46,571 nucleotides of DNA from Dehalococcoidia bacterium (lineage in GTDB: Bacteria; Chloroflexota; Dehalococcoidia; Lucifugimonadales; UBA3495): contig JASLXV010000013.1 of NCBI GenBank assembly GCA_030740155.1, positions 1 to 46,571 of the forward strand, written 5' to 3'. A program made the position numbers and the translations under genes. The first letter of the stretch is position 1. Every line of letters starts with the position of its first letter. The notes beneath the pieces are model-generated. The model saw only the letters and a program-made list of their open reading frames with translations, had not been told where the DNA came from and made no database searches. Below are positions 1,671-32,336 of the stretch, piece after piece.

Positions 1671-3293
1671 TCAATTCCAGTGATCAATTGCTTCCGGCAG
1701 ATGGCGCAGGGCGAACTCCAGCGTTATGACGGGCACAGCCTCCAGGCGCGCTGCCTTCTCGATCCGAAGCCGGGCGCGGCTTCGCCGCCGGTCGTCCGGA
1801 ATACGCCGGAGCTGCTCCAGGGCGGCTCGCGCCCACCGCAGAGACCCTCCGTCAAAGGTCGCTTGGGCCTGGCTGCCACCCTGTTGCCGGGCTGCGGCCT
1901 CCAGGGTGTCTGGCTCCACCACGAGGAAAGTCTCGCCCTCCTCCTGGCATACTGGGCAGATTACGGGCCGGTTCTTCCGGGCTGCGTGGCCGCACTGGCG
2001 GCACAGGTAGACCGTTCCGGCCTCTTTGCGAAGCGCTTCTACCGCCACGGAGAGGGCAGCCTCTTCCACGTTTGATTTCTCACGGCCTGATTTCTCACGC
2101 CGACCCGGCCGCATGGCCGCCACGGCCTCCCCGACAAGGGATGCGGACACAACGCTATGCCCCTGCTCCCGGGCCAGCCGCTGCACCAGCATTCGCAACG
2201 CGCCCCGGTACTTCTCGGGAACGTGGCCCATGGCAGTCTCTGCCTCGCCGGTCCACCGCAGCGTGGACGAACTCCACATCTCCAGAGGCGGGCTGTACCG
2301 CTGGCTCGCCACCAGGAGGTTGCAGGGGGCGAAGCGCAGGAGATGCTCGGTCACGCTCCCGATGTCCACTTCCGGGCTGCTGTGGGAGCCGATGCGTCCC
2401 ATCAGCAAGAGCCAGGGTTTGACCTTCTCGGCATAGGCCAGCACTTCATCGGCGGCCCGGCCCGTTAGCAGTGTGGTTTTCATACTCACACCTTGGGCCT
2501 CGGCCACGCTCTGGGCGACTTCCAGGTAGGTCTGGTAAAGCCGCGCCAGCCCGGTGTCGATGATCTCTTCATGGAGCTGCTCCTGCTCCTTGAAGCGAAA
2601 CAGACGCGCCGCCTCTTCGGAGAGCACCTCCACCATGCTGTGAAAGACCGCGTAGTGAAAATAGGGGTCGAAGGCCGCCACCGTCTCCACCGGACGCCCG
2701 TAGGCTTTCCCCAACGCCAAGGCCGCTTGCAGGGCGCCGAAGGCCTCCTGGCTTCCGTCCATGGCCACGACAATGGGCCTGCCGACTCCGTCGGCGAAAA
2801 CCTCCGGCTCTTTGATCACCAGGGTGTCGGTGCGGGTCCCCCGGAGCACCCGCTGGGCCACGCTTCCGACGGTGTCCGGCCGGCTGGTCCCATGCCCCCG
2901 GGCCCCCAATACCACCAGGTCGTAGTTCGAGCTGGTGATGTCTTCTACCAGGCACTCCCAGTTCTTCCCCTCGAAAGTCTTCCGGCTGAAGGGGACTTCC
3001 GCCTCCCGGCAGCGTTCCTCCAGGGCATCCAGGTAACTCTCGGAGATGAGCTGAAGGCCCAGGGCGATCAGTGAATCGTGGATGGCCCGTTGGCGCTCCA
3101 GCTCTTCGTCCACCAGGTACTCTTCAGGGAGGGTCGTCTCCATCTGACGGAACCGCCGCTCGTGCATCCGAGCGGCGTACACGTGGCTCCCCACCAACTC
3201 TCCCCCGAAGGCTTGGGCAAGCGACACGGCGGCCGTGGAGCAGCCCTCGCTGAAGGGCGAGTTGTCCAGAGGAACCAGAATCCGCTGATACAC
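1671..3293 (-). CDS. Multidomain universal stress protein (2x Usp + PCP_red-like helical domain + rubredoxin-like CxxC..CxxC + PCP_red-like domain)
   Basis: YQRILVPLDNS and IVVAMDGSQEA Usp starts, GSV..VL / GSVTEHLLRFAPC Usp ends, W(T/A)xxA..L..(V/I)P helical repeats, CRQC..CPVC. Start placed at GTG 3293 after GGAAAGGT. Confidence 0.85.
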   Translation of the reverse strand: MYQRILVPLDNSPFSEGCSTAAVSLAQAFGGELVGSHVYAARMHERRFRQMETTLPEEYLVDEELERQRAIHDSLIALGLQLISESYLDALEERCREAEVPFSRKTFEGKNWECLVEDITSSNYDLVVLGARGHGTSRPDTVGSVAQRVLRGTRTDTLVIKEPEVFADGVGRPIVVAMDGSQEAFGALQAALALGKAYGRPVETVAAFDPYFHYAVFHSMVEVLSEEAARLFRFKEQEQLHEEIIDTGLARLYQTYLEVAQSVAEAQGVSMKTTLLTGRAADEVLAYAEKVKPWLLLMGRIGSHSSPEVDIGSVTEHLLRFAPCNLLVASQRYSPPLEMWSSSTLRWTGEAETAMGHVPEKYRGALRMLVQRLAREQGHSVVSASLVGEAVAAMRPGRREKSGREKSNVEEAALSVAVEALRKEAGTVYLCRQCGHAARKNRPVICPVCQEEGETFLVVEPDTLEAAARQQGGSQAQATFDGGSLRWARAALEQLRRIPDDRRRSRARLRIEKAARLEAVPVITLEFALRHLPEAIDHWN

Positions 3294-3300
3294 CTTGACG

Positions 3301-3726
3301 CTACCTTTCCGTCGCCGGCTGGCCGAGCAGCGACGATAACATCGGCACAAGTTCCGTGCCCACCCGGTCCTTGGTGATGAAGCCGGCGGCTCCCAGATCG
3401 GCGGCCACCTGCCGTTGCCCTGGCTCCTCCACCGCCGTCATCATCAGGATCGCGGCTGATGGGCATTCTTCCTTGATTATCCTGGCAGCTTCAAAGCCGT
3501 CGATGCCCGGCATCCTGATGTCCATCAAAACGACGTGGGGTTGGTAGTCACGCGCAAGTTGGGTAGCGTCTTCCCCGCTGGCCGCCTCATATATCGACTG
3601 TATATCAAGCTTGTCATCGTAAGAGAGGATCATCGTGGCAAGCATCTCACGGGCTTTCGGGTGGTCGTCCACTACCAGCACCCGGTAAGATGATCCTCGG
3701 CACCGCCTGTAGCAAGCCATAACCAT
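3301..3726 (-). CDS. Stand-alone response regulator receiver domain (NarL/CheY-like)
   Basis: VLVVDDH, LMDIRMPGIDG phospho-Asp motif, conserved Thr and GFITK. No output domain. Confidence 0.85.
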   Translation of the reverse strand: MVMACYRRCRGSSYRVLVVDDHPKAREMLATMILSYDDKLDIQSIYEAASGEDATQLARDYQPHVVLMDIRMPGIDGFEAARIIKEECPSAAILMMTAVEEPGQRQVAADLGAAGFITKDRVGTELVPMLSSLLGQPATER

Positions 3727-3739: not shown

Positions 3740-4771
3740 CTAGCGGTTCGTTTCGCCGTCTTGCTTCTCCTTTCTCCGTAGCAGCCTCAGCCCCAGGACC
3801 TGGACGATAGCCACTCCAGCGACCACCAGAAGGGGGCTAATGTAGGCGAAAGGCCCCACAGCCTTCTCCAGGCTCAAGAAATACCAGGTGGAAATGGCTT
3901 TCTCGCCCCCCCGCTCCTTGCTGCTTCCATCCCAAGCCGCGAAGGCCAGCGGCATGGTATCGCCGCGCTCAAAGGAGAATCGCTCCTGGGCCCGGGGAAT
4001 GGAGATCACGGTCTTCCAGCCGCCTTCTTTCCTCACTCCCTTGCCGGAGCCGTCCTGCTTCCCCACGTTCACAGAGCTGATGGTGCCGAACCCTTCGGCC
4101 GTGAGCTTCTCCACGGGCGTTTTGGCCTGCAAATCGGGGTTGGCGAGGGAACTGCCCGCCCACCAGGAGGTATGAAATACCTTATTGGCCTCTTCTTTCC
4201 CGTAGTCGGACGCCTCGGCAATCTCACCCGGGCCCCGCCCCGTGAATGGGTACCAGTCCACGGCCATGTTGGGGAACTCGTCGTTTGTGTCGTAGTCACT
4301 GGCGAACTGCCAGTCCGCTTTCCAGTGGTAGATGGTGACCGGGTTGTTCAACTCCCCCATTCCGAAATACGGAATGCCCTTGGTCGACTCGGAGGGAAAC
4401 TGGACGGCAACGGCATCCCGGAAAGAGCCCACACCGCCAATGCTCACGTCTTCACCGGCGTCGTCCCATTCCAGCAAGAATGCAAGCCTGTTATCGTCGT
4501 AGAGCGCACGGGCCGTCACGATTCCCACCCCGGTTTCGTAGGTGCGCGGTTTTACTACCGCCTGGGGCGCCATTGGCACTTCCAGGGAATCCGCCTTTTG
4601 CCACAGGCTGGCCTCGGGATCGTCGGGGACACGGTCTACCTGCTTGGCGATGAGGCTTGCCTTCTGAGCCGACACGCTCCTGGTGAAAGGCCAGACTAGC
4701 CAGCCAACGGCGGCGGCGGAAGACGCGAGCAACATGGATCTTCGACTGATCAGAGATTTTCCGGCGTTCAT
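3740..4771 (-). CDS. nxrC: DMSO-reductase type II gamma subunit (EbdC/NxrC-like heme b protein) with Tat signal and C-terminal membrane anchor
   Basis: SRRSML twin-Arg signal, LEWDD, DAVAVQFP, PYFGMGE (Met ligand), YHWKADWQ, FAAWDGS..ERGGEKAISTW (Lys ligand). C-terminal hydrophobic helix followed by RRK. Located in the nxrAB operon. Confidence 0.8.
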   Translation of the reverse strand: MNAGKSLISRRSMLLASSAAAVGWLVWPFTRSVSAQKASLIAKQVDRVPDDPEASLWQKADSLEVPMAPQAVVKPRTYETGVGIVTARALYDDNRLAFLLEWDDAGEDVSIGGVGSFRDAVAVQFPSESTKGIPYFGMGELNNPVTIYHWKADWQFASDYDTNDEFPNMAVDWYPFTGRGPGEIAEASDYGKEEANKVFHTSWWAGSSLANPDLQAKTPVEKLTAEGFGTISSVNVGKQDGSGKGVRKEGGWKTVISIPRAQERFSFERGDTMPLAFAAWDGSSKERGGEKAISTWYFLSLEKAVGPFAYISPLLVVAGVAIVQVLGLRLLRRKEKQDGETNR

Positions 4772-4777
4772 GGACCT

Positions 4778-5524
4778 CTACCCCCTTTCCGCGGCGGGGA
4801 CAACGAGTGGGCAGGCCTCGCAATCCGGCATTCCTTCTTCGGATGGCTCCACGATGACCGGGTCGCCCACTTCGCCGGGCTCAAGCCCAAACGTTCGCAT
4901 CTCGAAGGTCAGAAACGCCATCAGCAGCTGGCCAATCAGCCCGTACAAGGTACTCCCAGTCCCCGTCTCTAGCTTCTGGACGAACCCAAACGCCCACTGG
5001 CCCAGGTGCTCCCCCAGGAACTTGGCCTGGGCTTCTCTACACACGGCCAACTGCTCTTCCGGGTGCCCTTTGGCGAGAGCGTAGGCTTCCTTGAGGCACA
5101 GAACGTGCATGAACTCCAACTCGACGCCGATATGGTCCAGGCGGTCATTGAAATCCGGGGCCAACTCCTGGCCAAAAGCCCGGTAGAACCCAGCAATGTC
5201 GGCCAGGTTCTGAGATTTCTGGAAAATGTGAGACTGCCCATACTCGGCCTCGTAAGGAGGAAACTCTTTGGAAATAGTATGCCCAAAGGTCCTGACGTAT
5301 TCGGACTCAAGTTCGCCGGGAGAGTAGGACATGATTGCGGGCCTCAAGGCCCGCAACGCCCCGAGGTTGGGCCGGTCCGCCAAGACCAAAAAGCGGTTCT
5401 CCAAATCCGGCAGGCGGCTCTGCAAGAACTCTACCAGGTCCGGGTCTGGGTAAGAGAATGCGGCAGAAATGAACTCGTAGGCCCTGCTCCGGGCCATCGG
5501 TTTACAGCCACAGGTTTCACACAT
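4778..5524 (-). CDS. TorD/DmsD-family molybdoenzyme maturation chaperone
   Basis: PPYEAEY, DIAGFYRAFG, DHIGVELEFM, FLGEHLGQW motifs. Start placed at ATG 5524 (GGGGG RBS), giving an MCETCGC N-terminus. Confidence 0.9.
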   Translation of the reverse strand: MCETCGCKPMARSRAYEFISAAFSYPDPDLVEFLQSRLPDLENRFLVLADRPNLGALRALRPAIMSYSPGELESEYVRTFGHTISKEFPPYEAEYGQSHIFQKSQNLADIAGFYRAFGQELAPDFNDRLDHIGVELEFMHVLCLKEAYALAKGHPEEQLAVCREAQAKFLGEHLGQWAFGFVQKLETGTGSTLYGLIGQLLMAFLTFEMRTFGLEPGEVGDPVIVEPSEEGMPDCEACPLVVPAAERG

Positions 5525-5537
5525 GGCCAACAACCCC

Positions 5538-6812
5538 CTAGATCGCGTTGTAGTGTTTGCCGGGGCGGATATATGTTGGCTCCTCTACCGACACCCGGGC
5601 TATCTCTTTGCCGCTCTTGCTGTACCCCACCACCGTGTCGTTGAACATCTCCCACTTCTTGCCGTTGATGGTGGTTTCAAAGACCTTCTCACCCTCGATG
5701 ATCTCATACCTGAAGGCAATCGTCTGAGAAGCCCGAAATAGTTGCAGCACGGCCAGCAACTCCCTGGAGGGAGCGGAGTATTTCTCGAGGGCCTCGTCCA
5801 CGCCGGGGCCGAACATCTGCCGGAGGTAGGCTCTGGGCGCCCACCGGGGCGGTATGTAGTACCCGTTGGGCTCGGTGCCGAACTGAGGGTAGAGGGGCAG
5901 GGCGATCTTCTCCGTTTTGATGAGGTAGTACAGAGGGTTGTCCCGGTCTTCGACCCAGCTCCCGTCCTCTTTGACCTCGACCAGCCCTTGGAGGCGTATC
6001 TTCCCCACGCAAGCCGCCATGCAGCGGGTCTCCATGGGCTCCCCCTCGGAGATGGGGTCCTTCCCTTCGATGCGGGGGTAGCAGGCGATGCACTTCTCCG
6101 TGACTCTCGTGGTGTCCCGGAACATGGGTTTCTTGTAGGGGCACTGCATGACGCACTTTCGGTAACCCCGGCACCTCTCCTGGTCGATGAGCACGATTCC
6201 GTCTTCTTGGCGTTTGTAGATGGCCTGCCGGGGGCAAGCGGCCAGGCACGCCGGGTAGGTGCAGTGGTTGCACAGGCGCTGGAGGTAGAAGAACCACGTC
6301 TCGTGCTCGGGAAGGGCCGCGGGCATCAGGTTTAGCAGGTCCCGCTGGTCCCGGGAGCCGGTGGCTGTATCCTCGTAGATGTTGGGAGACCGCCACTGCT
6401 CATCGGTGGGTTCGTAACCCAGGGCGACCTCCTCCCGCTGTTCCGAGTGTCTCGCTGCCTCGAAGATGGTCATACCTTCGTAGGCGCCATAAGGCCGCTG
6501 ATCGCCATCCCGCTGCGAAGGGTCCCAGATGGCCTCGCGGCCCGCATCCTGGTGAGCCTGGTCCAGCATACCCAGAAGCCTGGCATCCCAAAACTGGGGG
6601 TAGCCTCCGTAGGGCTTGGTCTCCACGTTGTTCCACCACATGTACTCTTGACCCTTGGAAAAGGTCCAGGTGGCCTTACAGGCCATCGTGCAGGTCTGTC
6701 AAGCGATGCAGCGGTTGGTGTTGAAAACGAAGGCGAACTGCCAACTGGGATGCTTCTCCTGATAGGGGTAGTGCATCTGCCGGCCAAGCTGCCAGTTGTA
6801 CACGTCAGGCAT
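5538..6812 (-). CDS. nxrB: Nitrite oxidoreductase/nitrate reductase beta (Fe-S) subunit, periplasmic NXR type, with in-frame TGA at 6699-6701 (candidate selenocysteine)
   Basis: The frame extends upstream of the ORF-track start to ATG 6812 (RBS AGAGGAG): [45 protein letters not shown], 424 codons in total. Contains QRLCNHCTYPACLAACP, CRGYRKCVMQCPYKK, KCIACYP, CMAACVG and ALPLYPQFGTEPNGYYIPP, typical of anammox/Nitrospira NxrB. Confidence 0.9.
6671..6698 (-). promoter_or_regulatory. Candidate bacterial SECIS element downstream of the nxrB UGA
   Basis: mRNA reads UGA-CAGACCUGCACGA-UGGCCU-GUA-AGGCCA: a perfect 6-bp stem whose apical loop starts with GU, 19 nt after the UGA. Confidence 0.55.
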
Positions 6813-7077
6813 TGGGCTCTCCTCTCTTGATCCAGCCGCGGCTCCATTTATCCCGGACCCGCTGAATTACCGATTGAACGTACTCCTCGCCCCTTTCGTG
6901 GTAGATGCGATGAGTTGCCTGGAAGAATGGGTTTGTGAAAATGGACATCAATTGTCCGTCGTTCCACCCCAAGAGCAGATACTCCTCCACCACGCACTCC
7001 GCCATGTAGTCCGCGTCCCCTTGGGGCAGGGCTATCCCCACCAACTCCATCGGGTCTTGGGGTTCGAAGGCTTTCAC
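6805..7077 (-). CDS. Small protein between nxrA and nxrB
   Basis: 90 aa, tightly packed against both neighbours. DPMELVG...MAECVVEEY...GW...F.NPFF pattern resembles small accessory proteins of type II DMSO-reductase operons. Confidence 0.75.
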   Translation of the reverse strand: MKAFEPQDPMELVGIALPQGDADYMAECVVEEYLLLGWNDGQLMSIFTNPFFQATHRIYHERGEEYVQSVIQRVRDKWSRGWIKRGEPNA

Positions 7078-7079
7078 GG

Positions 7080-10000
7080 TTAGCTCCTCACCCTGGTGAC
7101 GTCGCCCTTTATGTACCTGGCCATGAAGCTGCTCTCGTTGGCGGGTGAGTAGCCTGTGGTCGCCGGCGTCCAGACGCCTACGCCGTCCATCCCCCCTGCT
7201 TCGGCCTTCTCAATCTTTATCAGGGTCTCCTTGGGCACCGTGTTGATGCCGTGGTTGTCCGCTTCAAACCCGAAGATGAAGGACATGAGTGCCTTGGCCT
7301 TGTGAAAGAGGTTGTCCGTCTGGTGCATGGGCATGAGCCAGCTACGGGTGATGCTCTGCTGGGAGCCGTAGCGGAAACTGGACTGATACCCGGTGTCGGC
7401 CGACAAGGCGCGTCCATCCGCGCGGCTCTCGTGGGCCAGCACGCTCCTCTCGGTGGCGATGAACGAAGCGTGCTTCATCATTGTGAAGTTGTAGGGATAA
7501 GCAGGGTTATACTTGACCCGAATCTTCAGCCGGGAGACCTTGTAGAAGTAGTCGTCCTGCTGCCAACCAACATAGGGCCGGTCGGCGGGGTTGGCGTCCA
7601 CGTGCACGTAGTCGCCGTCCGCGATGTCCAGGTCCCGGGCTGCCTGGGGGTTCATGTGGATTTGCCACTCACCCACCCCCGGGCTCCGCTTGTCAACGCG
7701 GTAGGGGTCGCCGAAGTTGTTGCTCCAGATGAAGTTCCAGTCGGTGACTGTCCACTGGGAGTGAACGGTGTGGCGAGACTTGGGGGTGGTGCAGAGGAAA
7801 CGGTAGCCCAGGCCCCAGAGGGGGTTCTCTGTGTTCTTCACCTCAGCCCAGGTCAGCTTGTTGTTGGCCACCGTCCGGAGGTCCGCGTCCTGAACCTTCT
7901 CCAGCAGCATAGCCGGGGTGATGCCGTTGTTTTCCGGGCGAATGAAGGGGTTGGAGGACACGATGACGTTGGGCAGGTAAGGCGTGGCCTCCGGGGCCTC
8001 CCGGTGAACGACGAAGTTTTCGCCATACTCGATGGCCTCAGGGATGTCGCAGTAGGCGTTCAGCCTGCCGGTATCGGTCAGGAAGGGGACGCTTTCGTGC
8101 ACCTGCTCCCAGAAGGCGATCCTCGGGTAGCTCCTGAAGAGCATCAGCGCGCCGCCGCGCACCCCGTATTTCCCGTCCAGGACGTCCTTGGTGGTGTAGC
8201 CATGGCTGGTGGTTGAGGTGTCCAGCAGCCGGTCGATGTAAACGTCCTCGCGCCCCTGCCGGGCGAAGGTCCAGTAATCCTGGAACCGGGGGTCGCCGGT
8301 GAGTTCGGTCAGCTTCTCCGCCACGCCGGGATAGATTTGCAGGTCATCCTTGCTGTCGTATAGTGGCTTGATTCCGTCCTTCCCCCAAATCTGTAAGAAG
8401 GGGTTGGAGCACGAGTTGGTGATCTCCAGGCTCTGGAACTCCATCCAACAGTTGGCGGGCAAGATGAAGTCGGCGTACTCGCACGTGGCGGTCATCTCGA
8501 TGTCTTGAGTGACAATCATGTCAACCTTGGGGTTGACGTTCTTGATGAGTTCGTAGGCCCACTTGGCGTTGTTGATGAGGTTCACGTTAGTGGTCCAAAT
8601 GACCTTGGTTGGCGTGGGCAGGTGGGTCGTTCCGGTGAAAACCTTGCGGCCGAACTTCGGGGTGTCCACAATCAGCGCCTTGTCCCGGTGGGCCCAATAG
8701 CCGACTTCCTCGCCCCGGGCGTAGCCGTGGACATACTCCTTGGTCATCGGCTGGTTCGAGTCCAAGAGGGGATTGAAGGGGTCTTCCGCCACCCAGCCCT
8801 TGAAGCCGGGGCCCGACCACTCCGAACCCTGAAAGTTGGCGGCCTTGTAGTTCCCAGCCCAGGTGTGGGCGCCGCTGCCCGCTATCCCGATGCTACCTAC
8901 CAGCATCAAAGGCAGGTAGGTGGCCCGGTTGTGCAGGGTAGCGTGAAAGTAGTGGTTGATGCCTTCCCCGTAGTGGATGGAGATGGGATAGGCCTCCCTG
9001 GGCTTGCCCATGAAGTCGGGGTCCCAGAACCGCCGGGCGATGTCCTTGGTCAACCGCTCCAACATCTCTTTGGACACCCCGCAAATCTCGTGCACAGTGT
9101 CCATGTCATAGTCCCGGAGGTGAACCTTGTACATCTCCCAGAGGGTCATCACCTCCACCTCGGATCCGTCTACCAGCGTTGCCTTGCCAGTCCACTCCAG
9201 CGCCGGATCGATGCCCTTGTCCGTCAGCGTGTCGCCAACGTCGTCCCGGGTGATCGCCCTGAACCCGTTACTGTTAAAGTCCCATACCACCGGGTCGCCG
9301 ATGATCTCCCGCTGCTCCGATGTTATCCCCTGGATGGTGGAGCTGGGGCCCTTCGTGAGGTCTTGGTTGCTATACCCCGGGAAGATGTCCTTGCCCTTGA
9401 GCCGCTGGAGGGTATCGGTGCGCACCAGCAGCGGGAAATCGGTGTACTGCTTGACGAAGGGCTCGTCGTACCAACCTTTGTCCATGAGGGACTTGGTGAT
9501 GCCCAGAAAGATGCTGGTGTCGGACAGGCCGGGACGCACCGACATCCAGTAGTCGGCCTTGCTGGCGGCGGGGTTGTACTCGGGGGCGATGACCACGAGG
9601 CGCCCGCCCCGCTCCATGATCTCGGTGAGCCAGTGGGCCTCGGGCATCTTGTTCTCGATCAGGTTCTTGCCCACCTGGATGGTGAGCTTGGAGGAGCGAA
9701 CGTCGTTCATATCGATGTCCGAGGTCTGAAGGCCGTGGACGAAGGGATGGCCGGGCGCCTGGTCGCCGTGCCAGGTGTAGTTGGACCAGTTCCGGCTGCC
9801 CAGGGCCTCATCGGGGCCCACTCCACGGATGCGGCTATCCAGAAGGGCCATCATGTTGCTTATGCGGTAGAGCCCGTACTTTCCGATGACGCCCAGCAGG
9901 CCCATGCCGCCCCGGAACTTCATGGTCCGGGTGCCCGCTCCTCCCCAGTGCTCCAGCAACTCGGGTTCGTAGCCGTCTTGGTCGATCAGGCGCCGCCGCC

Positions 10001-10628
10001 CCTCATCGCCGCTGTAGGTCTCGGCGATGGCCATGAGTCCCTTGGCCAGGTACGTGCTGATTTCGTCCCAAGAAAGCCGAACGAACTCGTCGCTGCCTCT
10101 GGAGTCGAATTTGTACTTGGTGCGCCGGCTCGGGTCGTCGGAGAGAGAGAGGAATCCTTCGTCGGCCCACTGCTTCCATCCCTTGCGGACCATGGGATAC
10201 CGCAACCGGTATGGCCCGTATACCCGCCGATGGAAAGTGTAGCCTTTCAAGCACATACGTGGATTCCAGGCTTGCGTTGCCTGGTTGCCGTACAGGTCCT
10301 TGTAGTTCTGGTGCTCGTAAGGTTGCTCCACCCGGGTCACCACGCCGTTGCGGACGAAGGCCTGGATTCGGCACGCATGGGTATCGTTGGGAGAGCAGAC
10401 ATAGGTGAAAGAGCGGTCGTAAGAGTACTGGTTGCGGTATACGTCCTCCCAGGCCCGGTCGGGATAGTACTCCAGCGGGTTATCGATTTGGGCGACCGGC
10501 CTGAGGTTGCGCCCCGCGAAGACCGGCTCCGCATCTAGACCCCGAAGCACACCCGCCGCCGCCACGCCCCCAGCAAGGGCGCCGGCCCCTGTGAGAAACT
10601 TTCTTCGGCTTATCCTACTGTCCGCCAA
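7080..10628 (-). CDS. nxrA: Nitrite oxidoreductase/nitrate reductase alpha (Mo-bisPGD) subunit, Tat-exported, anammox/Nitrospira type
   Basis: TTG start after GAGGTG. SRRKFL Tat signal, FS0 motif CSPNDTHAC...RMCLKG with Asp ligand, NWSNYTWHGDQAPGHPFVHGLQTSD (Mo-ligating Asp), GKNLIENKMPEAHW, WAGNYK, TPKSRHTVHSQW, FRYGSQQSITR. Confidence 0.93.
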   Translation of the reverse strand: MADSRISRRKFLTGAGALAGGVAAAGVLRGLDAEPVFAGRNLRPVAQIDNPLEYYPDRAWEDVYRNQYSYDRSFTYVCSPNDTHACRIQAFVRNGVVTRVEQPYEHQNYKDLYGNQATQAWNPRMCLKGYTFHRRVYGPYRLRYPMVRKGWKQWADEGFLSLSDDPSRRTKYKFDSRGSDEFVRLSWDEISTYLAKGLMAIAETYSGDEGRRRLIDQDGYEPELLEHWGGAGTRTMKFRGGMGLLGVIGKYGLYRISNMMALLDSRIRGVGPDEALGSRNWSNYTWHGDQAPGHPFVHGLQTSDIDMNDVRSSKLTIQVGKNLIENKMPEAHWLTEIMERGGRLVVIAPEYNPAASKADYWMSVRPGLSDTSIFLGITKSLMDKGWYDEPFVKQYTDFPLLVRTDTLQRLKGKDIFPGYSNQDLTKGPSSTIQGITSEQREIIGDPVVWDFNSNGFRAITRDDVGDTLTDKGIDPALEWTGKATLVDGSEVEVMTLWEMYKVHLRDYDMDTVHEICGVSKEMLERLTKDIARRFWDPDFMGKPREAYPISIHYGEGINHYFHATLHNRATYLPLMLVGSIGIAGSGAHTWAGNYKAANFQGSEWSGPGFKGWVAEDPFNPLLDSNQPMTKEYVHGYARGEEVGYWAHRDKALIVDTPKFGRKVFTGTTHLPTPTKVIWTTNVNLINNAKWAYELIKNVNPKVDMIVTQDIEMTATCEYADFILPANCWMEFQSLEITNSCSNPFLQIWGKDGIKPLYDSKDDLQIYPGVAEKLTELTGDPRFQDYWTFARQGREDVYIDRLLDTSTTSHGYTTKDVLDGKYGVRGGALMLFRSYPRIAFWEQVHESVPFLTDTGRLNAYCDIPEAIEYGENFVVHREAPEATPYLPNVIVSSNPFIRPENNGITPAMLLEKVQDADLRTVANNKLTWAEVKNTENPLWGLGYRFLCTTPKSRHTVHSQWTVTDWNFIWSNNFGDPYRVDKRSPGVGEWQIHMNPQAARDLDIADGDYVHVDANPADRPYVGWQQDDYFYKVSRLKIRVKYNPAYPYNFTMMKHASFIATERSVLAHESRADGRALSADTGYQSSFRYGSQQSITRSWLMPMHQTDNLFHKAKALMSFIFGFEADNHGINTVPKETLIKIEKAEAGGMDGVGVWTPATTGYSPANESSFMARYIKGDVTRVRS

Positions 10629-10670
10629 ACCTACACCTCTAGAACTGGATCGCTGTTACTGGCTGTGTTT

Positions 10671-11438
10671 TTACCTGGGCGTGTGGCCCGTTTCGTCATA
10701 CAGGTACACGATGACCTTCCACGCCTCGTCCGATGACAGGTCATTGGAGTGAAGTGTGGAGGCGTCGGGTTCTTGGTCTGAGGCCACCCAACGGGGCATG
10801 GCGCTATTGAACTGGTTCTGGATGCCGCCGGTGGTCAGCCTCCAATAAACGTAGGGAAGCGTAAGCTGGGCAATGGTGCCCGGGTCTTGGAAGCTGGCGG
10901 GGCGAATGGGATAGCGAAAGCCCTCGGCGGCCGGGCCTTTGCCATCCAGTCTTTCCCCGTGGCATATGGCGCAGTTGCCCCCGTAAAGGAGTTTTCCTTC
11001 CTCAACAGCCGCTGGGCTCCAGTTGGCCGGCTCCGCCGCCCATTCCGGCACCTCAATGCGGCTCAGGATTTCTTCACCCGCGGTGGGGTGCCGCTGGAAG
11101 ATCTCCACGGGCGGAGAGTAGCTGGGACGCATGGCGCCATAGACTCCCCAACCCAAGACCAGCGGAACCACCAGAAGCAGGATCCAGCGTTGTGCCCGGT
11201 GTGTTGCGGTGTCATTCGCGGTTCCAACGAAAAAGTCCCGGAACCGCTGCATCCGGCCATCATCCAGGGTAACATGGATGATGACGCCGGCAATCACAAA
11301 CCCCATGTACAACAAGATAATGCTGCCTGGGAACACGGGCCGGACGAGCTTCAGCAGGACGAACATCCCGGCCAGGACCAGGAAAGCGCCTACGGGCAGG
11401 GGCACGTTGCGGGCCCAGGATGGAAGGCCGGGCCTCAT
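10671..11438 (-). CDS. Membrane-anchored monoheme cytochrome c
   Basis: Three N-terminal hydrophobic helices, CAICHG heme site, NSAMPRW distal Met. Confidence 0.85.
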   Translation of the reverse strand: MRPGLPSWARNVPLPVGAFLVLAGMFVLLKLVRPVFPGSIILLYMGFVIAGVIIHVTLDDGRMQRFRDFFVGTANDTATHRAQRWILLLVVPLVLGWGVYGAMRPSYSPPVEIFQRHPTAGEEILSRIEVPEWAAEPANWSPAAVEEGKLLYGGNCAICHGERLDGKGPAAEGFRYPIRPASFQDPGTIAQLTLPYVYWRLTTGGIQNQFNSAMPRWVASDQEPDASTLHSNDLSSDEAWKVIVYLYDETGHTPR

Positions 11439-12280
11439 TGTCCACCTCCAGAGGAAAGAAGATAATCGAGCAGGGCTTCAAGTTGTCCGGCGGTCATCTG
11501 GTCACCGAAGGTCGGGGGCATGACGCCGGAGAGGGTTCCCTCTTTTTCGAAGGCGCCGGGGTTCACGATGGACTCTATTACGTAGGCCCTGGGGCTCACC
11601 CCTCGGCCCGACGCTGTGTCCTTGAGGCTAGCCGCGTCCAGGGCCGGTCCCACCAGCACCACGCCAGGATCCAGGCTGTGGCAATTCCCGCAGTTGAACG
11701 CGGTAAAGATAGCCACGGGGTCTTTGACCGACGCTTCAACTGGCGATGCGCCGCCGGTGGCGGCCACTCCACCCGCCGTATCCCCTGATGGCCTGGGGAT
11801 GTCGCCTAATTTCGCCGAGGGCGTTCCTCCCAGAGACTGCAGGTAGTTGACGACCGCCACGATCTCTTCGTAGGTAAGTTTTGCCGGGGCGCTCGTGGCC
11901 GCCGGCATTATGTCGGCATACCCTTCCACCAGGTAGGCGCCCGGCTCGTAGAGGGCCTGGGCCAGGTATTCGACCAGGTCGCCGGGTCCTCCATCTACGC
12001 CCTGGGCCCTTCGGGTGGCCAGGCCGGCCCAGTTTGGCCCCCGGCCTCCCCCTTGAACCCCAGACCCGGGCTCGATCGTGTGGCAGGCCAAGCAACCCCG
12101 CTGGAGCGCGATGGTCTGGCCGACATCCGCCAACTGGGCCGGGGTCATGCTCGCGCCGATGTCCTGTTTCTCAGGGGGGTCCCATTCCGTCTGAGGTATC
12201 CAGTTGGCGAACCAGACGAAGAACCCAAGGATAATCAGGGCCGGGGCGGTGGCCACCGCGTACTGCCGAACTCGCGTCAT
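11435..12280 (-). CDS. Membrane-anchored diheme cytochrome c
   Basis: N-terminal TM helix, CLACH and CGNCH heme sites, each followed by an MP distal Met. ATGA overlaps with both neighbours. Confidence 0.88.
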   Translation of the reverse strand: MTRVRQYAVATAPALIILGFFVWFANWIPQTEWDPPEKQDIGASMTPAQLADVGQTIALQRGCLACHTIEPGSGVQGGGRGPNWAGLATRRAQGVDGGPGDLVEYLAQALYEPGAYLVEGYADIMPAATSAPAKLTYEEIVAVVNYLQSLGGTPSAKLGDIPRPSGDTAGGVAATGGASPVEASVKDPVAIFTAFNCGNCHSLDPGVVLVGPALDAASLKDTASGRGVSPRAYVIESIVNPGAFEKEGTLSGVMPPTFGDQMTAGQLEALLDYLLSSGGGQ

Positions 12281-14049
12281 GCCCGCTCCCCCGCAGCCTG
12301 CAACCGCTGCCCTCTGCTTGCCTCGGCCTCTGCTTCAACCACCGGGTCCCTTCCCATCATGCCGGAGATGGCGAAGGAGACGGCCAGCAGGGCGAAGAAG
12401 ATCAGAGTAATCAACGTTATGACGATGGCGGCCTCGCCGAGAGACGGAAGACCAGCCCCGGCGGAGGTGTCTTCCATGATGCCGAAGACGTGCCAGTTGA
12501 GGCGGACGCCACTCCTCGCGTAGCCCATGAGCCCCATGAGCCAGACGATGACGAAAGCCAGGGCTATGAGCACGTACTGGCCCCGCTGGGGCATGCTGCC
12601 CCATCGCACCGCGGCCACCGTCTGCGACCCCCGCAACAGGAACACGTCCAAGGTAAAGGTGAAGGCGATGCCGATCATGAGGACCACGATCTGCAACACA
12701 GACGTGTCGATCCGCGTTTCTGCCGAGGAAAAGTAGCCGACCACCCCCAGTACCGTGATAGCCACTGCGGTCAAGCCCAGAGCGCCCCACTGGATGATGT
12801 TCCCGGTGCGGCTCCACGGAACGGTCAGAACCCGCCCGGCCCGGCGGTAGAGGAGGTAGCTGGCGTAGAGGACCACCAGGATCAGGGTGACGGCGATCAT
12901 CTTGGGGGCCATAACCCCCAACGCCCCCAGGATGGGGTGGAAACCGCCGGTGGACTCCTCAATGGAGGCCGCCATGGTGTGGGGGGTCGCCCACACCATG
13001 AACCCGACGATAAGGACGACGTTGAAGACGGGGGTCCACTTCCGCTGGGCCTCAGAGCCGGGGATGCGGATGAGGCCCAGCCAGGCGTAGTAGGCCGCGC
13101 CGATGAAGAGGACGGCGATGACGATGGCCTGGATTATGAACAGCCAGGAGAGAACCCCTCCCATGAGGGTCACACCGTAGGTGGCAGAGTAGGAAAACAG
13201 CTCGAAACCGAAATAGTAGCCTACAAAAGGCAGGAAAAGCATGGTGAACAGGGCAATGAGGTTGCCGGTGTACCCCATCCAGTCGTAGAAAGCCCGGTCC
13301 TCTTCCCGTTCCGCGGCAATGAACCGGTAGGCGGCGTAGGCCCCTGCCAACAGGGCGCCGAGGGTGATGTTGGCCACCAGCCGGTGGATATTGAGGGGCA
13401 TCCAGCCCGGGTTCCACACGGCGTTATACAGGCTGGTCAGGTTGCCTACCTCGTCCACGCCGCCGGGGGTCATCATAAAGGTGGCCCAGGAGTCGGCGGT
13501 GAACAAGATGGCGGTGCCAAAGATGTTCAGGGCCAGCCCGAGCAGCAGGTGGATCCATTTCTTGTTGCCTTGAAGCTGGTTCCAAGAGTAGTAGTAGAAA
13601 TAGAGGGAAAAGGTCTCGGCGAGGAAAAACAACGGGTAAACCCACATGGTGGGCCCCATAATGTCCGTAAGGTAACCCATGAAGCGCGGGTACAGGGTAA
13701 AGAGCAGGATAGCCATCATGGCACCCAGTATCGCCGTGATGGAAAAGGCCGGGGGCAGCAACCGGGCCATCTCGTGCGCCAAGCGGTCGAAACGCTTTTC
13801 CTTGCGGCGCCAGCCCATGAACTCGATGACCAGGGCGAACATGGGCACCGCCAGCACGAAAGCGGCGAAATTCAAGTGGAGCTGGGCCGCCATCCACACG
13901 GCCAGCCGGCTGCCGACGCCCGCAAGCTCCCGGTATTCTCCGGTAGGTGCCGGCCCCTGGGCCCAGACAGTCCCCGTCCCCAGCAGCAGCAGCAGGGCCG
14001 CCAGCGACAGTGCTAAAAAGAGCTTCCACGTCCGTTTGACGAACATCAT
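12277..14049 (-). CDS. CydA-like (cytochrome bd subunit I-like) integral membrane cytochrome b; probable quinol-interacting module
   Basis: Many TM helices. QLHLNFAAFVLAVP and PLNIHR His motifs align with CydA. The canonical GRQPW is replaced (GVRLNW) and the operon has no cydB. Resembles the bd-like proteins beside NXR genes in anammox bacteria and Nitrospira. Confidence 0.8.
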   Translation of the reverse strand: MMFVKRTWKLFLALSLAALLLLLGTGTVWAQGPAPTGEYRELAGVGSRLAVWMAAQLHLNFAAFVLAVPMFALVIEFMGWRRKEKRFDRLAHEMARLLPPAFSITAILGAMMAILLFTLYPRFMGYLTDIMGPTMWVYPLFFLAETFSLYFYYYSWNQLQGNKKWIHLLLGLALNIFGTAILFTADSWATFMMTPGGVDEVGNLTSLYNAVWNPGWMPLNIHRLVANITLGALLAGAYAAYRFIAAEREEDRAFYDWMGYTGNLIALFTMLFLPFVGYYFGFELFSYSATYGVTLMGGVLSWLFIIQAIVIAVLFIGAAYYAWLGLIRIPGSEAQRKWTPVFNVVLIVGFMVWATPHTMAASIEESTGGFHPILGALGVMAPKMIAVTLILVVLYASYLLYRRAGRVLTVPWSRTGNIIQWGALGLTAVAITVLGVVGYFSSAETRIDTSVLQIVVLMIGIAFTFTLDVFLLRGSQTVAAVRWGSMPQRGQYVLIALAFVIVWLMGLMGYARSGVRLNWHVFGIMEDTSAGAGLPSLGEAAIVITLITLIFFALLAVSFAISGMMGRDPVVEAEAEASRGQRLQAAGERA

Positions 14050-14083
14050 CCAACCCCGATTAGGTTATCTTTGGAGCCGTTTT

Positions 14084-14101
14084 TAGTGCTTTTTTTCACA
14101 A
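14084..14101 (-). promoter_or_regulatory. Rex-type operator
   Basis: Minus strand reads TTGTGAA-AAAA-AGCACTA against consensus TTGTGAA-N4-TTCACAA, about 35 nt upstream of the first operon gene. Confidence 0.65.
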
Positions 14102-14151
14102 GCGCGCCTCGTTAGTTCCCCTGGATAGTTGCATTTGGGAGACGCCCCGGC

Positions 14152-14448
14152 TTATTTGGGCGCCGCAAGCCCTGACTGGCTGTTGATGAACGCAAGAACG
14201 TCATCGAGCCGCCTAGTGTAAGCCAACTTACCGGTCTGCACGTGGGTCACTCTCCAGCTCCACACCGGGTCTGCTTCGACCTCTTGTGATTCAAGCCAGA
14301 CCGTCAAAACAAAGGACACTCCGAAACCCCGGGACCCCGCTTCTTTGCTGCGCCTGGGCCCACTTTGTGATACTTTTTCCGCACCGGATCCTTCCATCTG
14401 GCTCACGCGCGGCGGCCACGAGTTTTGTTTTTCCCTGATCCAGCCCAT
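14152..14448 (-). CDS. Small hypothetical protein
   Basis: SFVLTVWLE...W..RVTHVQTG......LDDVLAFI pattern, which I recall from small Chloroflexi proteins. Start uncertain. Confidence 0.6.
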   Translation of the reverse strand: MGWIREKQNSWPPRVSQMEGSGAEKVSQSGPRRSKEAGSRGFGVSFVLTVWLESQEVEADPVWSWRVTHVQTGKLAYTRRLDDVLAFINSQSGLAAPK

Positions 14449-14666
14449 GAGTTAATAAACGGCGCTTCATGGCCCGGGTCGCCGCAGCCTTTCAACGCCG
14501 GGCCGCACTTTGTGATGCATTTCTCACACTCAGCCCTTAAACCCCGCTTAAATATAACTGCCAAGATTTCTGCCCGCAATTCTGCTGGACAAGAGCGACT
14601 TCTGGTGCGGATTCCTTGCTGGGAGGCGCTTTCCTTGGGCTTGCCAGTGGTGGCAGCAGACTCTCT

Positions 14667-15647
14667 CTATTCCCAGGGCACTCGAAGCCAAGCCATGCCT
14701 TGGGATGAGAGTAGTATCGGGGCGTACAGCCGCGGCTCACAACGAACTATCGCCTCAAGCTGCTCGATGTAGTCCTGGGCTCGGGCAAACGCTTCCTCAT
14801 CATCAGAGAGGGCCACGAACGCCTGAAAGTCGTCCAACGCGGCGCTACACTGGCCGCCCAGCCACCGGGTGACACCTCGAGCGAAGTAAGCATGTCCGCT
14901 GTGCGGCTGGAGGACGATGACGTGATGGAAGTCCTCCAATGCCCGTTGAAACTGCCGCAACTGGAAATAAGAGAGACCTCTGAAGTAATAGGCTGCCCAC
15001 CAGCCATCATCATTCGGCCCGATGGCGACGGTGTAGTTCCGTATGGCCTCATCAAACTCTCCTTGCAGCCGGTGGGCTTCACCCATTCCCTCGTAGGCGG
15101 TAGAGGAGGAGGACCCCAGGGAGATGGCCCGGTGGTAGTCCTGGTCCGCTTGGGCAAACCGGCTTAGCTGTAGGAGAACATGACCTCTTTTCATGTATAG
15201 GCGAGGCGTTTCTCGAATCTCTATGGCATTGGTGTAGTCCTTCACGGCTTTCTCGTGCTCACCGAGCATGTAGTGGGCCTTGGCTCGGCCCACGTAGGCT
15301 GCCGAGTCGGACGGCTCGACGGCGATGGCCTGGCTGTAAGCGCTGACGGCCTCCTCCCAGTTCCCTAGAAGGGCCATCCGGTCCGCTTGCTTGGAATAAC
15401 GCCAGAGGTCCATCCGGGGCTTATCATCGTATTGGAGGGAGGCATCTCTTGGGACGGTTGTCCCATCGGGCAACCCGACGTCAAGGGGTGTGGGTGACAG
15501 GTACTGGCTCTCACCAGCTCCTTCGTTTGGTAACGGAGATCCCTCCGATCCACAGCCGCTGGCGGCGGCCCAGACCACCGCAAGGCTCAGCAGGAGCGGT
15601 TGCCAGGCTTGTCGGAGCTTTCCAGCTTGCGCCTGATTCACTCCCAT
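14667..15647 (-). CDS. TPR-repeat putative lipoprotein
   Basis: Hydrophobic signal ending ASGC, followed by about 6 TPR repeats (AYVGRAKAHY, LYMKRGHV, AYYFRGLSY, AYFARG). Confidence 0.85.
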   Translation of the reverse strand: MGVNQAQAGKLRQAWQPLLLSLAVVWAAASGCGSEGSPLPNEGAGESQYLSPTPLDVGLPDGTTVPRDASLQYDDKPRMDLWRYSKQADRMALLGNWEEAVSAYSQAIAVEPSDSAAYVGRAKAHYMLGEHEKAVKDYTNAIEIRETPRLYMKRGHVLLQLSRFAQADQDYHRAISLGSSSSTAYEGMGEAHRLQGEFDEAIRNYTVAIGPNDDGWWAAYYFRGLSYFQLRQFQRALEDFHHVIVLQPHSGHAYFARGVTRWLGGQCSAALDDFQAFVALSDDEEAFARAQDYIEQLEAIVRCEPRLYAPILLSSQGMAWLRVPWE

Positions 15648-15765
15648 GATCCCTCACAGACGCGCGGTGCGCGGAAATACATCGTAGGAAATACTGAGCA
15701 CTCGTTTAACCCGCACTAAGGTGCCGAATACTTTGTCAGACTTACTTGAGGCTTATATCAGGGGC

Positions 15766-15797
15766 AAAAAAATGCACCCGCGAGGCAGCGGGTGCAT
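15766..15797 (-). terminator. Rho-independent terminator of the SARP/BTAD regulator gene
   Basis: 10-bp stem ATGCACCCGC/GCGGGTGCAT with a 6-nt loop, followed by a T7 run on the minus strand, just after the stop at 15823. Confidence 0.8.
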
Positions 15798-15822
15798 CAT
15801 TGGGCGCGGACCGGGAAGTGCC

Positions 15823-18075: not shown

Positions 18076-18200
18076 GAAGGTCGCCTCCGCTGGGTGGACC
18101 GCTACCCCGGTTCTGTCCCCATTTCCTCCTCCCGGTGCTTCGGAAGGCTCAGGTCCAGCGTGGTTGTGTCACGCCTCATACCACGGGTTGAGCACCATTT

Positions 18201-18250
18201 CATACCCTGGTACGAGATGATAATAGTACCAGGGTGTGAGCAAACTCACA
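18201..18250. promoter_or_regulatory. Inverted repeat plus TGTGA-N6-TCACA site upstream of the SARP regulator
   Basis: ACCCTGGTAC (18204-18213) / GTACCAGGGT (18226-18235) perfect inverted repeat. TGTGA-GCAAAC-TCACA at 18235-18250 has CRP/FNR-family or Rex-like geometry. Confidence 0.55.
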
Positions 18251-18709
18251 ATAGGCGGAGCCAACAGGTAAGTGTTCAGACTTGAGGGGACGAACTTGAT
18301 TTGCTGGCCTCCGCCCCGGCCGTTCCGCGCCTGGCGGCATTATGTTGGCACAAGTGAGGAACCCAAATCCCCTCGAATGTGAACAGTTACGCCAACAGGC
18401 ACAAACGATCAACAATTGGAATGAAAAGGGTGGTCACCCGAAACGGTTTGGCTGGTATCGTGTCACCTTAGAACATTGCTGACCCGAGCCCCAAGAATCT
18501 GCCGGTGATGAATCCGCCGGGAATGACGAAAACGGCTCATGGCTATCGCTCGAAAAGGGAGCCCTTCATATTTGTGGATTTCGGAATTCCGGCTTGGCCG
18601 GAAAGACGCCGGAAAGACAATCGCAGTGAGGGGATGTCGCACAATTTCGCCGATGTAGAGCTATCTACAAAACAAGACACCAGGCACCAGGTGGATCCGG
18701 CGGATTCGC

Positions 18710-32328: not shown

Positions 32329-32336
32329 TAAGTTTC

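Follow-up and report, generated by a model that had tools for sequence, protein, structure and literature searches.

Is an in-frame TGA in the gene for the iron-sulfur subunit of a nitrite oxidoreductase (NXR) the mark of a decaying gene, or is it translated as selenocysteine? The question is raised by an nxr operon of a Dehalococcoidia bacterium (assembly GCA_030740155.1, contig JASLXV010000013.1), situated in a stretch of 46,571 nucleotides that is termed the window in the following. We propose that NxrB of this globally distributed dark-ocean organism is probably a selenoprotein, in which selenocysteine has very recently, and on a horizontally acquired NXR module, replaced a Cys ligand of the FS1 [4Fe-4S] cluster in an electron-transfer subunit of the NarH type.

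The eight-gene operon announced in the original prediction is indeed present, with all genes on the minus strand between positions 3740 and 14049 (Table 1). They are arranged in the order cydA-like, dihaem cytochrome c, monohaem cytochrome c, Tat-nxrA, small ORF, nxrB, torD-like and nxrC, with distances between successive genes of -4, -4, 42, 2, -8, 4 and 6 bases that point at tight coupling, and the motifs quoted at the time (CSPNDTHAC, NYTWHGDQAPGHPFVHGLQTSD and MACK) were all recovered. Apart from the TGA in nxrB (codon 38), the 10.3 kb operon contains no other stop or frameshift. The resemblance of the cydA-like protein to cytochrome bd subunit I is limited to the N-terminal half (residues 47-284 on positions 2-237 of the 418 positions of PF01654). 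Hydropathy analysis indicates a single N-terminal hydrophobic segment for the dihaem cytochrome; the N-terminus of the monohaem cytochrome features three hydrophobic segments. The small ORF yielded no match in Pfam and NCBIfam searches and its Atlas clusters are all annotated as hypothetical, and 53 of 88 other regions compared, none of them among the Nitrospirota loci, contain a homologue at the corresponding place.

Table 1. Genes and sequence elements of the nxr operon (positions refer to the window)
Feature	Position	Strand	Characteristics
cydA-like membrane protein	12277-14049	-	PF01654, 65.5 bits; ~12 hydrophobic segments
Dihaem cytochrome c, membrane-anchored	11435-12280	-	PF00034, PF13442; CLACH at 63, CGNCH at 197
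Monohaem cytochrome c	10671-11438	-	PF13442, PF00034; CAICH at 156
nxrA, molybdopterin catalytic subunit	7080-10628	-	PF00384, TIGR03479; TTG start, SRRKFL Tat motif
Small ORF, 90 aa	6805-7077	-	between nxrA and nxrB
nxrB, four-cluster iron-sulfur subunit	5538-6812	-	PF13247, TIGR03478; 424 codons, TGA at codon 38
In-frame TGA, candidate selenocysteine U38	6699-6701	-	codon 38 of nxrB
Candidate bacterial SECIS hairpin	6671-6685	-	UGGCCU-GUA-AGGCCA; 19 nt between UGA and loop
TorD/NarJ-like assembly chaperone	4778-5533	-	PF02613, 82.9 bits; TIGR03482
nxrC, haem b subunit (EB_dh fold)	3740-4771	-	PF09459, TIGR03477

Each of the three subunits finds its best solved match in the structure of Kuenenia stuttgartiensis NXR-ABC (PDB 7B04). 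For NxrA, the score is 1794 bits with Kuenenia NXR-A (7b04_B) compared to 167 bits with PcrA and about 127 bits with NarG, NxrB reaches 638 bits with 7b04_A compared to 174 bits with NarH, and NxrC matches 7b04_C with 62 bits. The N-terminus of NxrA, with SRRKFL followed by a hydrophobic stretch, aligns with the signal region of 7b04_B, and C78, N81, D82, C86, C126 and D289 align with Kuenenia C67, N70, D71, C75, C115 and D275. Judged by this alignment and by the residue roles that PMC8387239 describes for the Kuenenia enzyme (C/D/C/C for FS0, N70, D275, Met and Lys for haem), C78, D82, C86 and C126 are predicted FS0 ligands, N81 the predicted substrate Asn and D289 the predicted Mo ligand. 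NxrC has an SRRSML signal in its N-terminal part and retains the Met and Lys haem ligands (M155 and K305 in Kuenenia); hydropathy suggests a C-terminal membrane helix at 304-322, in contrast to the Kuenenia enzyme, which PMC8387239 describes as purified from the soluble fraction. Three Cys and one Asp at FS0, the substrate Asn, the Mo-Asp, MACK in NxrB and the ligands of haem b are thus common to both enzymes, and the conserved small ORF between nxrA and nxrB as well as the TGA in place of Cys at codon 38 of nxrB set the window apart.

In a tree of 66 NxrA rows, calculated without NarG, PcrA or Nitrotoga references and with a 39%-identical paralogue as sole outgroup, the protein from the window groups with periplasmic NXRs. 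Uncultured bacteria contribute the NXR-like enzymes of the large clade into which it falls, and the sister of this clade is NxrA of Scalindua, not that of Nitrospira; identities of the window protein amount to about 62% with Scalindua, 59% with Nitrospina and 52% with Nitrospira. Together with the Tat motif on NxrA and bit scores of at most 167 for all other references, which set the protein apart from NarG, PcrA and EbdA, this supports the assignment as a periplasmic-type, putatively Tat-exported NXR that had been made in the original prediction. The affinity to anammox enzymes stated there holds insofar as the two groups are sisters, but the window copy resides outside the anammox clade, and the cydA-like and cytochrome c genes that were said to accompany anammox nxr genes were not found at two Scalindua loci with the query used.

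The MACK motif originally quoted for NxrB does not mark the beginning of the protein. The reading frame starts upstream, with an ATG at 6812 that is preceded by the ribosome-binding site GAGAGGAGAG, and crosses the TGA, which had gone unreported. This codon takes the place of the second Cys in the first CxxCxxCxxxC motif and aligns with Cys38 of Kuenenia NxrB; by homology, it would specify a ligand of the FS1 cluster. The same position is occupied by Cys in all of 83 other nxrB loci, and the other Cys columns of NxrB are invariant in an alignment of 15 sequences. Among the Cys ligands of FS1 to FS4, the column checked, codon 38, is represented by TGA, and since selenocysteine is a chemical analogue of Cys, the set of Cys ligands would be complete if the codon were read in this way.

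The genome encodes the machinery for selenocysteine insertion, i.e. tRNA-Sec, SelB (322.8 bits), SelA (548.6 bits) and SelD (376.8 bits), and selD carries a TGA of its own. At least six other genes feature TGA in redox motifs, with a GU/GG-loop hairpin in five of six. Both the machinery and these further genes count for selenocysteine in NxrB. The hairpin downstream of the nxrB TGA conforms on all four counts to the published bacterial SECIS model as quoted in PMC13188914, as do 14 of 75 Cys-type controls (19%). It is short and borderline with an energy of -7.8 kcal/mol, or -8.4 kcal/mol with one extra pair, and it resembles that of the Prx gene on contig C74 of the same genome. The region as such does not fold better than shuffled sequences (z -0.07 and -0.62).

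Judged by its closest matches, the backbone of the window is that of a member of the Dehalococcoidia, in line with the placement originally suggested. The best named matches of LigA are Dehalococcoidia MAGs (84% and 70%), and the genome of a member of the same genus (G001) matches the window at 15624-18271 with 84% and at 24794-40000 with 81-85% nucleotide identity. Such a host had been regarded as unexpected; it is less so, as 11 named and six unnamed rows of the NxrA tree stem from Chloroflexota, including Chloroflexi CSP1-4, and the enzyme type is common in MAGs from this phylum. The same genome even contains a second nxr copy on contig C20, the NxrA of which groups with other Dehalococcoidia. 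The C20 copy looks lineage-typical and the copy in the window looks horizontally acquired. Window NxrB has a Cys form as its sister (P0006, 89% identity) and is part of a starred clade of 11 rows together with two Pseudomonadota MAG loci. On C20, nxrB is apparently intact and without stop and nxrA is frameshifted at a run of seven C, so that the two clusters could complement each other.

Several explanations other than selenocysteine have to be weighed. The TGA differs from TGC and TGT by a single base, and shortly after it, at 6612-6673, contigs from many organisms accumulate and break off; an error of sequencing or assembly is nonetheless as good as refuted. Two further metagenome contigs (L022 and L024), which show 4 and 46 differences to the window elsewhere, share this TGA, and so do zero-difference contigs of three runs in three studies (X1, X9 and X15; two DNA, one RNA). 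The operon stretch occurs almost unchanged in 20 runs of 12 studies, six of these runs being RNA, among seawater metagenomes and metatranscriptomes, and TGA is the allele in every assembly examined, RNA contigs included. The main rival is a plain nonsense mutation that would turn nxrB of this copy into a recent pseudogene; the operon may then be dead, or NxrA may be paired with NxrB from C20 or with traces of protein from leaky UGA read-through. We consider this possible, albeit rather doubtful. Just 15 of the 185 single-base routes to a stop in nxrB convert Cys to TGA, and the exact position on a conserved Cys ligand counts for selenocysteine, which is in wide use in this genome. Furthermore, all four nxrB differences in TGA-linked haplotypes are synonymous, for which the chance is P ~0.002 (0.218^4), or 0.011 (0.326^4) counting transitions alone, based on four sites only, and the remaining 10 kb are intact; these points and the uniform TGA allele, RNA contigs included, count against a pseudogene. 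A pseudogene would, on the other hand, agree with a derived TGA that is placed on a terminal branch and limited to a single near-clonal population, with Cys in the sister P0006 and all 83 other loci, a distribution that counts against selenocysteine. The TGA is absent from the gene carriers among Chloroflexota genomes (9 of 400 genomes from the phylum and 2 of 60 relatives), a pattern scan for the TGA form across 185,579 species genomes found nothing, and the searched text of a selenoprotein catalogue from 2026 lists none of the NarH/NxrB type. It is also conceivable that the stop-free nxrB on C20 renders the window copy dispensable, and the hairpin test has the false-positive rate given above. 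On balance, we favor the reading of codon 38 as selenocysteine.

It is very improbable that the NXR part is foreign to the Dehalococcoidia genome, be it through chimeric assembly or as a mis-binned proteobacterial piece. The genes directly adjoining the operon, encoding a SARP regulator and orf98 (14152-18271), are present in G001 with 84% nucleotide and 82% and 65% protein identity, respectively, which is the level found for the housekeeping side at 24.8-40 kb and counts against a chimera. In tetranucleotide make-up, the distance of the operon from the genome mean corresponds to the 97th percentile, but the C20 cluster, Dehalococcoidia-like by phylogeny, is equally odd. A foreign origin would be in agreement with Pseudomonadota MAGs as nearest named relatives of NxrB (75-82%), with the full gene order that is shared only with two loci from such MAGs, with an estimated contamination of 7.65%, and with a serine recombinase and a low-GC stretch at 21-25 kb of the window. 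Among the contigs compared, none was seen to span 14049-14152, where the operon and the adjoining genes meet; an RNA contig of X15, the record of which extends about 400 bases further, continues up to 14100, the end of the compared stretch. As a whole, the data appear best explained by an intact, acquired, outward-facing NXR module with a TGA that is read as selenocysteine, an explanation in which we place moderate confidence.

The encoded enzyme would be an outward-facing nitrite oxidoreductase or nitrate reductase of the kind present in anammox bacteria, Nitrospira and Nitrospina, operating in a widespread marine member of the Dehalococcoidia. NxrA is predicted to carry Mo-bisMGD and the Asp-ligated FS0 cluster, and electrons would travel from there via four clusters in NxrB to haem b of membrane-tethered NxrC, beyond which the cydA-like protein and both membrane-anchored cytochromes c probably receive them. 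With selenocysteine at codon 38, a selenolate would take the place of one thiolate ligand of FS1, the first [4Fe-4S] cluster, next to NxrA, and would probably tune potential or stability of the cluster. Regarding the catalytic direction, we are inclined to assume that an aerobic heterotroph gains additional energy by oxidizing nitrite; nitrate respiration is possible, and the occurrence of the stretch in RNA libraries does not discriminate between the two. A search for carbon fixation and terminal oxidase genes, as originally recommended, detected one haem-copper oxidase and none of the fixation markers RuBisCO large subunit, ACL citrate-binding domain and CdhC of CODH/ACS in this 93.7%-complete genome, the search for ACL being weak because no control genome gave a match.

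Among the 88 other regions, only those from a Betaproteobacteria MAG (L025) and a Xanthobacteraceae MAG (L026) feature all eight genes in identical order, with a USP/PCP_red gene nearby, and homologues of the cydA-like protein are found only there (73% and 71% identity, respectively). The corresponding values are 71% and 70% for the monohaem cytochrome, 68% and 67% for NxrA and 79% and 78% for NxrB. Both loci belong to another host phylum than the window; their codon 38 is TGC, and neither yielded a hairpin that would pass the SECIS test. The periplasmic NXRs of Nitrospira and Nitrospina are of the same enzyme type and superclade, with NxrB proteins that are 64-68% identical and contain MADK or MAHK instead of MACK. 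Their hosts are autotrophs. No adjoining homologue of the small ORF, TorD or NxrC was found at most Nitrospira loci with the queries used. NarGHI and the Nitrobacter-Nitrolancea NXR share the DMSO-reductase type II architecture and a NarH-type cluster chain and give far weaker matches (about 127 and 174 bits); these enzymes face the cytoplasm and their catalytic subunit is not known to carry a Tat signal. Known selenoproteins with selenocysteine for Cys in a ferredoxin-type cluster motif were likewise predicted from Cys homologues and belong to different protein families.

If selenocysteine is indeed inserted, a metabolic enzyme of the nitrogen cycle would join the selenoproteome and selenium supply would be linked to nitrite or nitrate turnover in the deep sea. 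NxrB would represent a kind of selenoprotein outside the 2026 catalogue, and the part tuned by selenium would be an electron-transfer chain rather than a catalytic site. Nature would also have performed an experiment on a selenolate ligand at a [4Fe-4S] cluster of a respiratory molybdoenzyme, with the Cys form just one codon away and a closest relative that is 89% identical. Whatever its nature, the function of the operon is widespread in seawater, and the host appears to be a heterotroph-like member of the Dehalococcoidia and not a classical nitrite oxidizer. Gene callers cut nxrB to a protein of 382 residues starting at MACK, so that databases and nxrB marker surveys mis-describe the gene. 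Some database proteins hint at candidate further cases, namely P0020 and P0098, which begin at MACK, and P0252, which ends at NRCIA.

The kind of enzyme encoded in the window is already known; what is new here is a UGA codon at the position of a presumed FS1 ligand, in an operon that is transcribed and globally spread. The ORF listing and domain scans bear out the original prediction of an eight-gene operon of the nitrite oxidoreductase (NXR) type within the limits proposed for it, and all three sequence motifs quoted at that time were found in the window proteins. The genes are tightly coupled, with gaps of -4, -4, 42, 2, -8, 4 and 6 bases. A search of the window against Rfam found no family.

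Coordinates of the features discussed (window positions unless a contig or locus is named; products of the operon genes according to domain scans)
Feature	Position	Strand	Description
Operon	14049-3740	-	eight genes, order as in the next eight lines
cydA-like		-	cytochrome bd subunit-I-like membrane protein; profile match to N-terminal half only
dihaem c		-	c-type cytochrome, N-terminal hydrophobic anchor
monohaem c		-	c-type cytochrome, N-terminal hydrophobic anchor
nxrA		-	1182-residue molybdopterin subunit, DMSO-reductase type II
small ORF	6805-7077	-	90 residues, without family
nxrB	6812-5538	-	NarH-type iron-sulfur subunit
torD-like		-	TorD/NarJ-like chaperone
nxrC		-	EB_dh haem b subunit
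TGA	6701-6699	-	in-frame codon 38 of nxrB
Variable nxrB sites	5706, 5741, 5934, 6066		among three TGA-bearing haplotypes
Raised contig depth	6476-6822		about 5- to 30-fold (80-750 vs about 8-30)
Contig breaks	6612-6673		
Difference cluster in nxrC	3990-4517		about 530 bases, L024 vs window
PCP_red-domain genes	1671-3350; 18710-19972; 19988-20635		flanking the operon
G001 match	15624-18271		84% nucleotide identity
G001 match	24794-40000		81-85% nucleotide identity
Low-GC segment	21000-25200		GC 0.55-0.58
Large serine recombinase gene	23212-25110		
Short G001-matching stretches	4-141; 18607-18685; 20962-21070; 26835-26963		80-140 bases, 75-90%
Second NXR cluster (L020)	C20:50713-57744		nxrA, small ORF, nxrB, torD-like, nxrC
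Apparent frameshift in C20 nxrA	near C20:55300		run of seven C
L154	G001 C174:11753-17325		SARP regulator, orf98, molybdopterin enzyme
TGA motif in L023	L023:601-636		RCLG-TGA-HTCTVACK

For all three core subunits the best solved match is the NXR of Kuenenia stuttgartiensis. NxrA reaches 1794 bits against it, compared with 167 against perchlorate reductase and about 127 against NarG; NxrB reaches 638 bits (other references 216, 191 and 174) and NxrC 62 bits (gamma subunit of ethylbenzene dehydrogenase 37). The residues to which the structure paper assigns roles (PMC8387239), namely the FS0 ligands C67, D71, C75 and C115, the substrate residue Asn70, the molybdenum ligand Asp275 and the haem ligands Met155 and Lys305, are all conserved in the window proteins, the NxrA equivalents being C78, D82, C86 and C126 for FS0, N81 for the substrate and D289 for molybdenum. 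The N-terminus of NxrA features a Tat motif, SRRKFL. NxrC carries a C-terminal hydrophobic helix, whereas Kuenenia NxrC is soluble.

Phylogenetic analysis of 66 NxrA sequences (quick search under LG+G4 with SH-aLRT as the only support; root placed on a paralogue of 39% identity) yielded a tree in which Nitrospira, Nitrospina and Scalindua branch off in turn, followed by a 39-row clade of enzymes from metagenome-assembled genomes (MAGs) of many phyla. The window NxrA lies in this last clade and adjoins an Elusimicrobia MAG (99, 71% identity). The predicted grouping with periplasmic NXRs was thus recovered, but within a MAG clade of its own beyond Scalindua and in a tree that holds no NarG, PcrA or Nitrotoga references. 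The window enzyme is of the known periplasmic NXR kind and belongs to a clade that many MAGs share, and the claim regarding its host is therefore modest. The host is less unexpected than originally proposed, as enzymes of this type are no rarity in Chloroflexota, though sporadic: Chloroflexota or relatives of the window genome make up 17 of the 66 rows in the NxrA tree, and a gene match is present in 9/400 sampled genomes of the phylum and in 2/60 close relatives.

The ORF listing begins nxrB at MACK because a TGA stands five codons upstream. The true start is an ATG at 6812 that is preceded by a GAGAGGAGAG site, and the frame reads MPDVYNWQLGRQ...NRCIA-TGA-QTCTMACK. TGA thus occupies the place of the second cysteine in the first CxxCxxCxxxC motif, aligned to Cys38 of Kuenenia NxrB. 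From NarH-type homology and the ferredoxin-fold rule we take this cysteine to be a ligand of FS1, the cluster adjoining the catalytic subunit. The same codon is TGC or TGT in all 83 other nxrB loci examined (75 found by pattern, eight MAHK or MACR variants read by eye).

The TGA is real. Two further metagenome contigs contain it and differ from the window at 4/6036 and 46/5725 positions, and the stretch is present in 20 public runs from 12 studies labelled seawater or marine, six of the runs being RNA libraries. Of four runs examined, three (two of DNA and one of RNA, each from a different study) have contigs without any difference that extend over the TGA codon, and the fourth has no listed piece over it; no variant at the codon occurs among the 40 variant rows listed of 346. 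Reassignment of TGA was ruled out: eight of the 16 window genes inspected terminate with it, so the code is standard. In the more divergent of the two contigs (L024), 41 of the 46 differences (28 synonymous, 13 not) are confined to a part of nxrC, as though a tract of a diverged allele had been recombined into it. Genes of many organisms are recruited to the conserved 5' part of nxrB, an effect that will blur nxrB marker counts; contig depth rises over this part in four marine runs, and contigs break within it.

We lean towards translation of the TGA as selenocysteine. The main alternative, which we regard as less likely, is that nxrB has recently become a pseudogene, perhaps compensated for by the NxrB encoded on contig C20 or by leaky read-through. 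Such a pseudogene would agree with a TGA that is derived and confined to one near-clonal population, no other lineage examined carrying it, and with the apparently intact nxrB paralogue on C20. The genetic equipment of the organism speaks against it, as the genome carries tRNA-Sec, selB, selA and a selD with its own TGA, and six other genes have TGA in classic redox motifs (selD, two DsbA-like and three peroxiredoxin-like). A hairpin, UGGCCU-GUA-AGGCCA, follows 19 nt past the TGA (-7.8 kcal/mol), agrees on all four points with the consensus model cited in PMC13188914 and is similar to the hairpin behind the TGA of the peroxiredoxin gene on C74 (stem of 7 bp, GUG loop, spacing 21); GU/GG-loop hairpins are present in five of the six reference TGA genes. 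While this argues for selenocysteine, the hairpin is short, 14/75 Cys-type genes pass the model in our own implementation (although only one of the 75 has the identical hairpin), and folds of the whole region around the TGA are no better than shuffles (z -0.07 and -0.62) and thus lend no support.

The kind of mutation also bears on the matter. Of the 185 single-base changes that would create a stop in nxrB, only 15 turn Cys into TGA and a single one is the change at this codon, which speaks against random decay, as do the standard code, the otherwise unbroken operon and the synonymous nature of all four variable nxrB sites. By chance the latter has a probability of 0.218 per change (P ~0.002), or 0.326 for transitions (P ~0.011), in a test comprising just four sites, which leaves room for a pseudogene. 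Genome-wide, nxrB is the only credible case of a U-containing CxxCxxCxxxC motif beside 42 all-Cys motifs. A second U-containing match resides in an arginine-rich frame and was taken as spurious. On the side of the pseudogene, the main text of a 2026 review of prokaryotic selenoproteins gives no match for nitrate reductase, NarH, dicluster, DMSO or beta subunit. The genome abounds in candidate selenoprotein genes: besides selD, two DsbA-like and at least three peroxiredoxin-like ones with TGA in UxxC, CUxxC or DxxUP motifs were noted on C8, C58, C74, C32, C95 and C40; a seventh TGA candidate, on C40, was dropped as its context is not clean.

A TGA-motif pattern scan of species genomes yielded no match; because it called for Thr (ACN) at the second codon past the TGA, QSC variants would have gone undetected. 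A 37-residue N-terminal query gave 117 matches, 21 short ones of which were examined. Database proteins P0020 and P0098 start at MACK and P0252 ends exactly at NRCIA, which may hint at further TGA cases; P0020's 90% cluster also contains a full-length Cys form, and P0252 was rejected as a case since its contig spans just 632 bases, in a region where contig ends are frequent. In the literature examined, no relevant report joining selenocysteine with nitrite oxidoreductase and iron-sulfur was found, nor one tying SAR202 to nitrite oxidoreductase. Metagenome contig L023 (1468 bases) has a TGA at the same second Cys in a different, small four-cluster beta subunit encoded behind a molybdopterin gene; no clear SECIS-like hairpin follows, and the case is therefore left as an aside.

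That a chimera or sequence error lies behind the NXR and TGA findings is very improbable. LigA, encoded on the same contig, has its best named relatives in Dehalococcoidia MAGs (84% and 70%), in line with the Dehalococcoidia backbone originally proposed, and LigA together with nucleotide matches to the same-genus genome G001 on both sides of the operon region speaks against a chimera. The SARP regulator and orf98 abutting the operon both occur in G001, there beside a different molybdoenzyme. The operon thus lies among lineage-typical genes, which makes a chimera unlikely, although no contig examined was shown to span the operon junction itself. By tetranucleotide make-up the operon is not separable from the Dehalococcoidia-like C20 cluster. 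The G001 molybdopterin enzyme (L154) is 26% identical to NxrA. Over its first 37 residues it is similar to the N-terminus of the window's cydA-like protein, possibly the trace of a recombination joint. A low-GC segment with a large serine recombinase gene divides the NXR side from the ftsH/glnA/ligA side and has the most deviant tetranucleotide make-up in the genome. Short stretches matching dozens of G001 contigs look like interspersed repeats.

The second NXR cluster, on C20, groups with Dehalococcoidia MAGs and same-family and same-order genomes in the NxrA tree; neither cydA-like nor cytochrome c genes were found beside it, and its nxrA is split by an apparent frameshift at a run of seven C. 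The nearest relative of the window NxrB is its sister, a Cys-form metagenome protein (89% identity); in the NxrB tree the window copy shares a starred clade of 11 rows with loci from two Pseudomonadota MAGs, and all named database matches at 75-82% are from Pseudomonadota. The full eight-gene order recurs in only these two Pseudomonadota loci of 88 other regions, many regions being cut by contig ends. We therefore read the window module as probably acquired horizontally, with a history different from that of the C20 copy.

NxrA and NxrB would be exported by Tat, guided by the TorD-like chaperone, and the complex would be tethered through the C-terminal helix of NxrC. Electrons could then travel between the Mo site, FS0, FS1 with its proposed Sec ligand, FS2-FS4 and haem b, with the membrane-anchored c cytochromes and the cydA-like protein possibly connecting the chain to the quinone pool or a haem-copper oxidase. 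A single haem-copper oxidase was found in the genome, on C54. A selenolate in this place would presumably alter the potential of FS1 or its stability towards oxygen. Markers for RuBisCO, ACL and CODH/ACS were not found in the 93.7%-complete genome, the ACL search having no positive control; on this basis we lean towards nitrite oxidation, which would supplement the energy supply of an aerobic heterotroph, the alternative direction being nitrate respiration at low oxygen.

Of 88 other NXR regions, 53 have a homologue of the small ORF at the equivalent site between nxrA and nxrB; no Nitrospirota locus has one. The ORF could encode a subunit or an assembly factor of the window's NXR clade that has so far escaped notice. 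The three PCP_red-domain genes flanking the operon are fused to USP domains, fused to a radical SAM domain, or duplicated, and a USP/PCP_red homologue also adjoins both Pseudomonadota NXR modules, in a Betaproteobacteria (L025) and a Xanthobacteraceae MAG (L026).
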